From the NCBI GenBank assembly GCA_964362455.1, contig CAYIEJ010000003.1:1-32003 (forward strand): a stretch of DNA of 32,003 nucleotides, written 5' to 3'. A program made the position numbers and the translations under genes. The DNA comes from an uncultured Candidatus Saccharibacteria bacterium (GTDB lineage: Bacteria > Patescibacteriota > Minisyncoccia > UBA6257 > GWB1-50-10). Position 1 is the first letter of the stretch. Each line of letters opens with the position of its first letter. This document shows positions 24,167-25,236 of the stretch, piece by piece. The notes beneath the pieces are model-generated. The model was not told the origin of the DNA and did not search any database. It saw nothing but the letters and a program-made list of their open reading frames with translations.

Positions 24167-24417
24167 GGACTCGCTCCTCGTTATTGGATTTCTCCCCATC
24201 CATGGCTCGCTCTTCCGTTCTGGGTTTCTCTGTAATTTTGGCTCTTGTCCTGAGTCGCACCGAAGGACTCGCTCCGCCTCATTGGATTTCTCCGTTACAT
24301 TGGCTCGCTGAGAATGAATGGATTTCTCCACACTCACGGCTCGCTCTGGCCCAATGGGTTTCTCCAATCCTATGGCTCGCTTACTTCTCATGGATTTCTT
24401 GGGGCCGGTGGCTACTT
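24167..24417 (-). repeat. TIGR-like array 1 (dual-spacer, 36-bp period): sub-array 1a with 2 units (24167-24247), 17-nt junction, sub-array 1b with 4 units (24265-24417)
   Basis: On the + strand, TGGCTCGCT-type 9-mers start at 24167(GGACTCGCT), 24203, 24239(degenerate), 24265(GGACTCGCT), 24301, 24337, 24373 and 24409(degenerate). TGGATTTCT/TGGGTTTCT 9-mers start at 24185, 24221, 24283, 24319, 24355 and 24391. Each is separated by a 9-nt variable segment. The strand is inferred. Confidence 0.85.
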
Positions 24418-25236
24418 CTTCTTCTTTGCTTTCTTCTCTTCCCGATCCACCATTTCCCACGGCGAAATGAATCCCGCGTGACCGAGCTTCTCGATCACGT
24501 AAGGATTCCGCGTGTCCAAACCCTCGGCTTCGCGCCAAACAATCCACAGCGAGGCGAGAAAGAGCTTAATCATCTTTCTCAAGGCCTGGTTGTGGACGTG
24601 ACCCTCGGAAATCACGCCCTCGGGTTCGTAGCGCTTGCCGTCGCGAGTGGGCAGTTGGGCGGCCGGGATAATCTTCTTGCCCTCCGCCCGATAGCGAACG
24701 AGATACTTCTCCTTCTCACGCGCGTAGTATTCGTAGAAACAGCCGCCGCCCTTCAAGAGCGAAGTGCCGAGCCGCCAGCACATGGTACGGAGCCGGCTGT
24801 TGTATGCCAGCTTGCCGCCGCCTTTTTCGCGCTTCGGCGCCTTGCCGTTTACAACACCGAAACCGGCAAAACTCCAAAGAGAACTCAAGGTGTCGGCCTT
24901 CGTGATATCCATAAGGCCGATAACCTTGCCGATATTCTCTTGGCCAACGCCCTTCACGCGGCTAAACCACGGATAGGCCGGGTGGCTCGTGAGGAGCGTT
25001 GCCATCCGACCGTCGGCATAATCCTCCACTTCCTGAAGTCGACGAAGCAGTTCATCGGTTTCCGGATCCTTACGATTGCGGAGCGCAAGATGGCTTTGCC
25101 TGATCTGAACCGCAATGCGAACACCCTCAATCGCAAGGACGCTCTTCACGAGAAAATTGAATGGATTTTCTTCCTGCTGAACTTCTTGTGTCTCGACGAC
25201 AGCAACCGGCGATACCACTGCTTTCTTTCTTGGCAT
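24412..25236 (-). CDS. tas: TIGR-associated (Tas) protein candidate: Nop-domain / IS110-C-terminal-like RNA-binding protein without a recognisable nuclease domain
   Basis: 274 aa with a strong SD (AGGAGGAGGGGGAG) before the ATG. RVKGVGQENIGKVIGLMD...SLWSFAGFGVVNGKAPKREKGGGKLAYNSRLRTMCWRLGTSLLKGG resembles the HhH module of the IS110 Transposase_20 and Nop domains. I saw no DEDD/RuvC or HNH motifs. The stop codon lies inside the terminal array repeat. Confidence 0.75.
   Translation of the reverse strand: MPRKKAVVSPVAVVETQEVQQEENPFNFLVKSVLAIEGVRIAVQIRQSHLALRNRKDPETDELLRRLQEVEDYADGRMATLLTSHPAYPWFSRVKGVGQENIGKVIGLMDITKADTLSSLWSFAGFGVVNGKAPKREKGGGKLAYNSRLRTMCWRLGTSLLKGGGCFYEYYAREKEKYLVRYRAEGKKIIPAAQLPTRDGKRYEPEGVISEGHVHNQALRKMIKLFLASLWIVWREAEGLDTRNPYVIEKLGHAGFISPWEMVDREEKKAKKKK

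Follow-up and report, generated by a model that had tools for sequence, protein, structure and literature searches.

A nuclease-free protein flanked by TIGR arrays in a candidate-phyla-radiation-like chromosome: a likely dual-repeat TasA

What can a Tas protein do if it carries no nuclease? The question is raised by tasA, a gene in a 32,003-nucleotide stretch of DNA from an uncultured Candidatus Saccharibacteria bacterium (assembly GCA_964362455.1, contig CAYIEJ010000003.1, positions 1 to 32,003), which was analysed at its full length and is called the window here. The coding sequence lies at 24412..25236 on the minus strand, the strand of all tasA and array coordinates given below, and specifies 274 aa from an ATG start, stop codon included; the open reading frame (ORF) was confirmed, and an in-frame stop is found 30 codons 5' of the ATG. 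An earlier reading of the letters (the original prediction) had described the product as a Tas candidate without a recognisable nuclease domain, belonging to the part of the family whose output is least understood. We find that the protein has no DNA-nuclease domain and consider it likely that it is a TasA of the dual-repeat type, the nuclease-free effector within a TIGR-Tas system (TIGR, tandem interspaced guide RNA), residing in a chromosome like those of the candidate phyla radiation (CPR).

An AlphaFold2 model of TasA, built on an alignment with 35 relatives (A1), reached a mean predicted local distance difference test score (pLDDT) of 86.9 and a predicted TM-score of 0.81, and is all-helical except for one beta hairpin. 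Residues 1-24 (25165..25236) form a disordered, variable N-terminus (pLDDT ~50) that is not conserved in A1 and holds neither His nor Cys. They are followed by a two-helix coiled-coil hairpin at residues 25-82 (24991..25164; helices 25-52 and 58-82, pLDDT >90), which finds its counterpart in the coiled coil of both TasR and TasH and, going by the role of this element in Tas proteins (PMC12045711), would serve in dimerisation and heteroduplex probing. Residues 88-262 (24451..24975) make up a helical Nop-type RNA-binding domain with the beta hairpin at residues 188-210, recognised from the model and from the TasR and TasH matches, and the protein ends in the lysine-rich tail REEKKAKKKK (residues 265-274; 24415..24444), which is unstructured in the model; many relatives have a basic tail too, but a variable one. 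The earlier description of an N-terminal helical region, a Nop module and a lysine-rich tail is therefore borne out by the model.

No DNA-nuclease domain was found in this architecture. A Pfam scan of TasA at E<=10 returned no family, and no PADLOC model matched the protein. The AlphaFold2 model contains neither the five-stranded RNase H-like sheet of the RuvC/DEDD fold nor the beta-beta-alpha-metal unit of the HNH fold; of cysteines there are two (153 and 166), which form no CxxC pair, and of histidines five. When the model was compared with the Protein Data Bank by Foldseek, the top 11 matches were all TasR (9mty) or TasH (9w04, 9w03, 9vzx, 21kl), at E 1e-10 to 1e-6 and with TM-scores of up to 0.76 on TasH chains whose HNH domain is unmodelled. 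The next tier consisted of the bridge-RNA recombinases IS621 and ISCro4 (E 1e-3 to 4e-2), everything else scored E >0.4, and no nuclease fold appeared among the matches beyond TasR, TasH and the IS110-type recombinases. A handful of phage proteins with a TasA-like fold were found in BFVD.

The alignments point the same way. TasA residues 44-263 correspond to residues 128-324 of the TasR chain, that is, past the TasR RuvC domain, and H54, the catalytic residue of the SpTasH HNH domain (10.64898/2026.08.11.744272), falls opposite V13 in the disordered N-terminus; residues 1-24 of TasA thus occupy the position of the TasH and TasR nuclease domains. Because Pfam, the model, Foldseek and the alignment offsets agree, the absence of a DNA-nuclease domain is confirmed, and with it the original prediction's statements that there are no DEDD/RuvC-like motifs and no cysteine-flanked H-N-H motif, since no catalytic DNA-nuclease fold was detected within the 274 aa.

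This absence holds for DNA nucleases but very probably not for RNA processing. SpTasH matures its own guides via Y289 and H296, both in the flexible loop with which the Nop domain ends on its C-terminal side, and its residues R278, R286, E292 and K293 were scored as required for guide processing (PMC13421893). In the alignment the two catalytic residues correspond to TasA Y246 (24499-24501) and H253 (24478-24480), both invariant in the 35 relatives of A1, and the other four to R235, R243, E249 and K250. The segment that carries the dyad, residues 241-260 (24457..24516), has a lower pLDDT of 64-75, which fits a flexible loop. Such a Tyr/His dyad, which acts on RNA without metal, is reported to be kept in dual-repeat systems and missing from stem-loop systems. 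Since the dyad and the neighbouring processing residues are conserved, TasA most probably cuts RNA, namely its own guide precursor. TasA W154 and K162 likewise align with SpTasH W203, the residue that stacks against the heteroduplex, and K211, whose insertion into the DNA begins the unwinding (PMC13421893), so that by its conserved residues TasA would still be equipped to open DNA, with nothing able to cut it.

To which family does the protein belong? The NCBIfam model NF052498 (TIGR_Tas_endo, 'TIGR-Tas system RNA-guided endonuclease') matches it end to end, profile positions 2-215 of 215 lying on TasA residues 27-235, with 189.9 bits against a cutoff of 100 (5.4e-56). The closest sequence matches in the Protein Data Bank are TasR 9mty (2.6e-26) and SpTasH (1.8e-21), and PHROG 4285, labelled 'transposase', matches at 5e-41. 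Among the features that define the TasA subtype we found the Nop domain behind a coiled-coil hairpin, the lack of an N-terminal HNH or RuvC domain, an adjacent array on the tas strand with a 36-nt period, alternating 8-12-nt repeats and ~9-nt spacers, the shared CCA box C with a covarying box D and an A-rich loop repeat, and, at the level of residues, the candidate C-terminal Tyr/His processing loop of dual-repeat systems. The N-terminal DEDD/RuvC-like domain of the IS110 family and a Pfam Transposase_20 match at threshold are both absent, as are the N-terminal fibrillarin-binding domain of Nop5 and Nop56/58 and any Pfam Nop or NOSIC match. It is because every defining feature of the subtype that a sequence can reveal is present that we favour the assignment to TasA. 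The nuclease-less class that the original prediction had named is indeed published: TasA is the commonest Tas effector, and CPR bacteria are already known as hosts of TIGR-Tas systems (PMC12045711). With the class known and the protein already captured by an NCBI family model, the locus is an additional example. The product name 'endonuclease' is nonetheless misleading for nuclease-free members of NF052498, because the 215 positions of the profile span the coiled coil and Nop domain only, so a nuclease-free TasA would be annotated as an endonuclease.

The gene is flanked by two arrays on its own strand, with a 36-nt period and 13 units in all. They are missed by the program TRF and detected by a dedicated repeat search, and no Rfam family covers them. 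Read on the minus strand, each unit comprises the edge repeat AGCGAGCCA, a 9-nt spacer A, the loop repeat AGAAAUCCA and a 9-nt spacer B; (G)AG opens and CCA ('box C') closes both repeats, at the 5' and 3' end respectively, and the loop repeat is rich in A. The upstream array (25427..25687) has seven units, a 5'-truncated first edge and a degenerate last edge (AGCGAGUCC). The downstream array consists of a first part of four units (24265..24417), whose truncated first edge AAG-TAG-CCA holds the tasA stop, and a second part of two units (24167..24247), also with a truncated first edge and with unit 1 common to the syntenic relative L019. Between the two parts lies an irregular 17-nt junction (24248..24264), across which the start-to-start distance is 98 nt, 26 nt beyond two 36-nt units; this block is missing from L019. 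The first edges read CGTTAGCCA and AAGTAGCCA, each 5'-truncated, and the last edges AGCGAGUCC.

Each array runs into a structured trailer. After the upstream array (25341..25430) come a GUCC...GGAC hairpin and then a GC-rich terminator hairpin with its U run (folding energy -49.9 kcal/mol, z -7.8), and after the downstream array (24064..24170) a GUCCUAAUCC hairpin, a terminator hairpin and a U run (-52.7 kcal/mol, z -8.2). Box C and box D, an A-rich loop, a truncated first edge and a terminator after the last edge are also what has been published for dual-repeat arrays (PMC12045711). Among the related loci, 17 of 18 have a similar array on the tas strand that begins at or beside the tas stop codon, and four, the window included, have an upstream array too. 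As a separate observation, the element GUCCUAAUCC-hairpin-GGAC closes every array before the terminator (25383-25430 and 24132-24170; z ~ -8), and its sequence frame is conserved in L019 (~1860-1900 and ~3040-3080); it may cap the last unit or help to process it.

Signals for expression are also in place. A ribosome-binding site, CAGGAGGAGGGGGAG, can be read from the sequence directly 5' of the tasA ATG (25237..25251), with an AGGAGG Shine-Dalgarno at 8 nt, and a sigma-70-like, promoter-like site, TTGACA-17-TATTCT with an extended -10 TG, lies upstream of the gene at 25310..25338. A second promoter-like site, TTGACA-17-TATTTT, precedes the upstream array (25775..25803), and the two sites have a similar 26-nt block in common (repeat family D3).

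Is the gene whole? A homology search gave 485 homologous proteins, of which the best 120, largely from Patescibacteria bins, are 55-84% identical to TasA and 235-361 aa long, mostly 242-290 aa. Conservation in A1 begins at residue 25, and 47 of its columns are invariant. At E<=1e-3 a profile search of 1.84 billion representatives returned 6178 proteins, 343 of them also at E<=1e-30, and in the majority the alignment begins at the protein's own N-terminus. Where relatives have 70-130 extra N-terminal residues, these consist of a translated 36-nt array (12-aa ERA/EKT period) or a small zinc ribbon, and no RuvC or HNH domain was present in the extensions that were inspected. The ratio of nonsynonymous to synonymous substitution rates (dN/dS) of tasA against L019 is 0.12, which indicates purifying selection. 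The gene is intact and not truncated; same-length relatives and purifying selection together show that it is not the 5'-truncated IS110 gene that the original prediction had considered. Two variations on the protein were seen among relatives: P0061, P0066, P0069 and P0133 have an insertion of ~37 aa inside the Nop domain (A1 columns ~230-266) with a CxxC...CxxC zinc ribbon, and in P0194 an array segment is translated within the coding sequence. The TasA of the window has neither.

We propose that two minus-strand transcripts would be made, one of the upstream array and one in which tasA is fused to the downstream arrays. TasA would dimerise via the coiled coil at residues 25-82, and each Nop domain would grip an edge or loop repeat by its conserved ends, the (G)AG start and the CCA end. 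The Tyr246/His253 loop would then cut the precursor inside the edge repeats and yield 36-nt guide RNAs (tigRNAs) with two spacers of 8-9 nt each. The resulting ribonucleoprotein (RNP) may unwind a 16-18-bp DNA site, each strand pairing with one of the two spacers, A or B, assisted by W154 and K162. Since there is no RuvC or HNH domain, the DNA would be left uncut, and the bound, sharply bent complex would block transcription or replication of the target, probably a mobile element and possibly a host gene.

These steps, from dimerisation and guide processing to DNA binding and repression, are modelled on homologues only. FpTasA of Flavonifractor plautii, a dual-repeat protein, binds 36-nt tigRNAs (Faure et al., Science 2025, PMC12045711). 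TasA RNPs have been described that bind their target DNA under guidance of the RNA, leave it uncut and repress transcription reversibly (10.64898/2026.09.09.750476, 10.64898/2026.08.11.744272), and cryo-electron microscopy of PlTasA revealed a dimer with two heteroduplexes on opposite strands (10.64898/2026.08.11.744272). Of the view that the output of such proteins is the least understood part of the family, the suggestion of binding or repression holds up as a possibility; the judgement itself is dated, as the 2026 preprints show both RNA-guided binding and repression, in stem-loop TasAs only.

What the guides recognise can be approached through the spacers, which were compared over 181 units from 17 loci. 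They are modestly purine-rich and C-poor (18% C), and spacer sharing between distant loci is not above chance, with two identical spacers (0.96 expected) and 28 pairs within one mismatch (23.7 +/- 4.8 expected). Only L019, the closest relative, truly has units in common with the window. The two have unit UP4 in identical form; in unit DN2-1 spacer A is identical and spacer B agrees at 8/9 positions, and the first downstream unit is similar only. No clear unit is common to the window arrays and those of the second syntenic relative, L001. The downstream array is a mosaic (window 24167-24417 versus L019 2859-3050) of four units, a terminal-type edge AGCGAGUCC, the 17-nt junction, a truncated edge and two units; in L019, unit DN2-1 comes directly after unit 1, so that the window's extra three units and junction have the look of a block that was inserted here or deleted there. 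Gain and loss thus seem to affect mini-arrays as whole blocks, and by this comparison the guides appear to turn over faster than TasA diverges, which would fit changing targets such as mobile elements somewhat better than a fixed host gene, if only weakly.

One type of guide may be conserved. The Shine-Dalgarno-like sequence AAGGAGG is found in spacer B of five of the 181 units (window, L001, L012, L014 and L019) against 0.46 expected, in a test that was post hoc and in which two or three of the cases are non-independent. The unit concerned in the window, UP6 (25463-25507), with AAGGAGGUA / CAUGUGCCG, resembles a ribosome-binding site plus ATG and has a similar counterpart in L001 (6590-6634); in both, spacer B followed by the reverse complement of spacer A gives AAGGAGGU-N7-AUG, a reading that depends on the A/B geometry. 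For searches in public viral and metagenome collections we estimate that chance alone would yield about one or more protospacer matches for an 18-mer and tens for a 16-mer; a 2026 preprint likewise warns of false positives in database target searches.

Several points weigh against a dual-repeat TasA that binds and represses DNA. Firstly, box D reads (G)AG and not the UG of TasR arrays, yet it is identical in both repeats, as is required by the family rule that edge and loop repeats share a covarying box D (PMC12045711). Secondly, the effective length of the spacers is ambiguous between 8 and 9 nt: position 9 is G or A in ~95% of the units, a purine bias from which the variable segment is probably 8 nt long, as in the SpTasH system, and box D in the arrays of the window and its relatives L001-L019 probably reads GAG or AAG. 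Thirdly, no target of the 13 guides was found in the 32-kb window in either A/B geometry with <=4 mismatches, the best candidate having 3 mismatches (0.43 expected by chance). Finally, MbTasA and PlTasA, for which DNA binding and repression were described, belong to the stem-loop analyses and not to the dual-repeat type, and the published activity of the dual-repeat FpTasA is tigRNA binding only (PMC12045711); we therefore infer binding and repression for a dual-repeat TasA by extension from its stem-loop counterparts.

The arrangement at the 3' end of tasA suggests a further possibility. At 24412-24420 the stop codon lies inside the truncated first edge AAG-TAG-CCA, and the same arrangement is present in 10 of 16 related loci; besides the window, it is seen in L001, L003, L004, L006, L008, L010, L016 and L019. 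Because the stop is within the first edge repeat, the Tyr/His cut that releases the first tigRNA might also break the mRNA of tasA, either at the stop codon or within it, and leave a non-stop message, a negative feedback that would couple the level of TasA to guide maturation in a chromosomally inherited CPR system with exchange of guides as whole mini-arrays. A 2026 preprint floats a related idea for intragenic arrays; for the present locus we put it forward as a doubtful but conceivable extension of the scheme.

Could TasA instead be a targeting module only, which recruits a separate nuclease or other effector, as the original prediction had also envisaged? The archaeal Nop5 acts by recruiting fibrillarin, and in the window, L001 and L019 a candidate lies close to the downstream array, a Cas4/RecB-like PD-(D/E)XK exonuclease of 253 aa (22576-23337, plus strand; PHROG 298 at 1e-23, Pfam PDDEXK_1 weak). 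It has an N-terminal Cys and a C-terminal CxxC...C and is 87% identical in L001, above the other neighbouring genes compared. The gene adjoins tas only in these closely related genomes, however, and is convergent with tasA and not co-transcribed; near tas in the other 15 loci its hidden Markov model finds no match even at E<=10, and in seven metagenome relatives it stands beside murC with no tas gene or array in the available flanks (full 6 kb in two). When the ORFs within 4.5 kb of tas were clustered over 17 loci, only tas and translated arrays recurred, and no protein-coding neighbour was common to at least three of the 17; Faure et al. also report no clear protein association of TasA (PMC12045711). 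We rejected the exonuclease as a partner, as a murC-linked gene that relatives carry without tas, and with no support in the gene neighbourhoods we regard recruitment of a separate effector as quite unlikely.

Alternatively, TasA might be an architectural factor whose guide-specified bend of ~180 degrees assists recombination, integration, partition or the control of replication. A bend of ~180 degrees is what TasR imposes on its target, and Faure et al. raise the possibility and note occasional ParB-like neighbours of TasA (PMC12045711). No integrase, ParB or recombinase gene is found beside the locus or conserved across the related loci, the setting is chromosomal, near rnpB and the 5S rRNA gene, and the direct evidence to date favours repression, so we give this explanation little credence.

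An activity at the level of RNA, in which targets would be bound or modified in the manner of box C/D small nucleolar RNPs (snoRNPs), could be imagined because both have a Nop fold and guides laid out in a box C/D-like way, but TasA has no fibrillarin-binding N-terminal domain and no methyltransferase or L7Ae-type gene neighbours the 17 tas loci. The characterised TasA proteins bind double-stranded DNA, and the residues that unwind DNA and stack on the heteroduplex in SpTasH, K211 and W203, are kept here as K162 and W154; we consider this very unlikely.

Less likely still is a cryptic DNA-nuclease site within the 274 aa, which the NCBIfam name 'RNA-guided endonuclease' and several invariant His, Asp and Glu residues might suggest. 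The name belongs to a profile confined to the coiled coil and Nop domain, and the model offers no RNase H-like sheet or beta-beta-alpha-metal fold. The conserved H213-x-H215 does not mark an extra domain, because it is common to the Nop domains of TasR and TasH, and the Y/H dyad works metal-free on RNA. A metal-free mechanism of this type needs the 2'-OH, which makes it unable to cut DNA. In vitro assays of nuclease-inactive TasR proteins, run beside TasA, which has no nuclease domain, detected no DNA cleavage either (2026 preprint).

The idea that tasA is a decayed or 5'-truncated, functionless remnant of an IS110-family transposase, prompted by the PHROG label and by weak or borderline PF02371 matches in some relatives, is ruled out by a full-length family of 240-290 aa, the dN/dS of 0.12, the gene's own promoter and ribosome-binding site, N-terminal extensions of relatives that are arrays or zinc ribbons and not RuvC, the lack of a DEDD domain upstream and the same position in syntenic genomes.

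The surroundings of the likely TasA locus tell how it has been inherited. In addition to rnpB and a 5S rRNA gene, the window carries pgk, murC and an RNase H gene; the setting is chromosomal and not that of a phage or mobile element. The RNase P RNA gene rnpB (bacterial class A; 26224-26559, plus strand, 110 bits) is ~540 nt from the upstream array, and the 5S rRNA gene (31787-31901, minus strand) lies near the window end. A tas gene occupies the same position in L001 (80% TasA identity) and L019 (84%), and the flanking proteins of the window and L001 are 62-87% identical, similar to TasA. We found no evidence of mobility of tasA, which is present in one copy and at the same chromosomal position in relatives; judged from these sequences, vertical inheritance appears to have carried the locus through at least three related genomes.

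By its base composition tasA stands out from its context: the gene has 55% GC and a third-position GC content (GC3) of 0.67, against 40% GC for the window. The same contrast is seen in L019, whereas in L001 the syntenic copy (GC3 0.35) is embedded in flanks of 35% GC. Possible reasons are that the gene is foreign and has been ameliorated unevenly, or that the copy of a GC-richer donor has replaced it. Bins assigned to Patescibacteria, Dehalococcoidales, Clostridiales and an Aenigmatarchaeota archaeon contain close homologues (53-70% identity), a scatter that suggests horizontal spread or mis-binning of small contigs. A free-standing LAGLIDADG homing-endonuclease ORF (20496-21002, plus strand; Pfam 8e-23) was also noted immediately upstream of murC (21047-22558, plus strand); this pairing is present in L023 and missing in L021.

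What, then, does the locus offer? It is a clear, naturally occurring case of a bacterial chromosome with a dual-repeat TasA, and its syntenic relatives, at 80-84% protein identity and with two or three guides in common, form a small natural series in which the gain and loss of TIGR spacers can be followed. At 274 aa and with no protospacer-adjacent motif needed, proteins of this compactness are candidate programmable repressors.

Set beside known systems, TasA has the same coiled-coil and Nop core as SpTasH of the Salicola phage CGphi29 (9W03, 9W04, 21KL) and TaTasR (9MTY), at Foldseek E ~1e-10 and 22-28% identity, and the processing dyad, the surrounding Arg and Lys residues and the W and K of heteroduplex stacking and unwinding are conserved; those proteins differ in carrying an N-terminal HNH or RuvC domain and cutting both DNA strands, where TasA has 24 disordered residues. 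The core of IS621 (8WT6/8WT9), also RNA-binding and composed of a coiled coil and a Nop-like domain, is distantly similar (Foldseek E 1e-3, TM ~0.47), but unlike the IS110-family recombinases TasA has no DEDD/RuvC domain and no bridge RNA, and Pfam Transposase_20 is undetected at E<=10. With the archaeal Nop5 and box C/D small RNPs it has in common a Nop domain, a putative coiled-coil dimer and a bipartite guide with box C/D-like motifs, and it differs in lacking the fibrillarin-binding N-terminal domain and in its expected target, which is DNA and not RNA. MbTasA, from Minisyncoccota, the same broad bacterial group as the window's relatives, and PlTasA are nuclease-free as well, and RNA-guided DNA binding without cleavage would be the expected output here too; they use stem-loop tigRNAs, lack the Y/H loop and have an extended CTD5, whereas the present TasA goes with plain dual repeats and a Y/H loop. 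FpTasA (PMC12045711) is likewise a solo coiled coil and Nop domain, nuclease-free, with the Y/H loop typical of dual-repeat systems, 36-nt edge/spacer/loop/spacer units, arrays on both sides of the gene, a first edge that is truncated and a last edge with a terminator behind it. From FpTasA the present system is set apart by its repeats AGCGAGCCA/AGAAAUCCA, by a box D of (G)AG instead of UG, by an effective spacer of maybe 8 nt plus a conserved purine, and by its place in a CPR-like chromosome, where it appears to have been passed on vertically across at least three related genomes.

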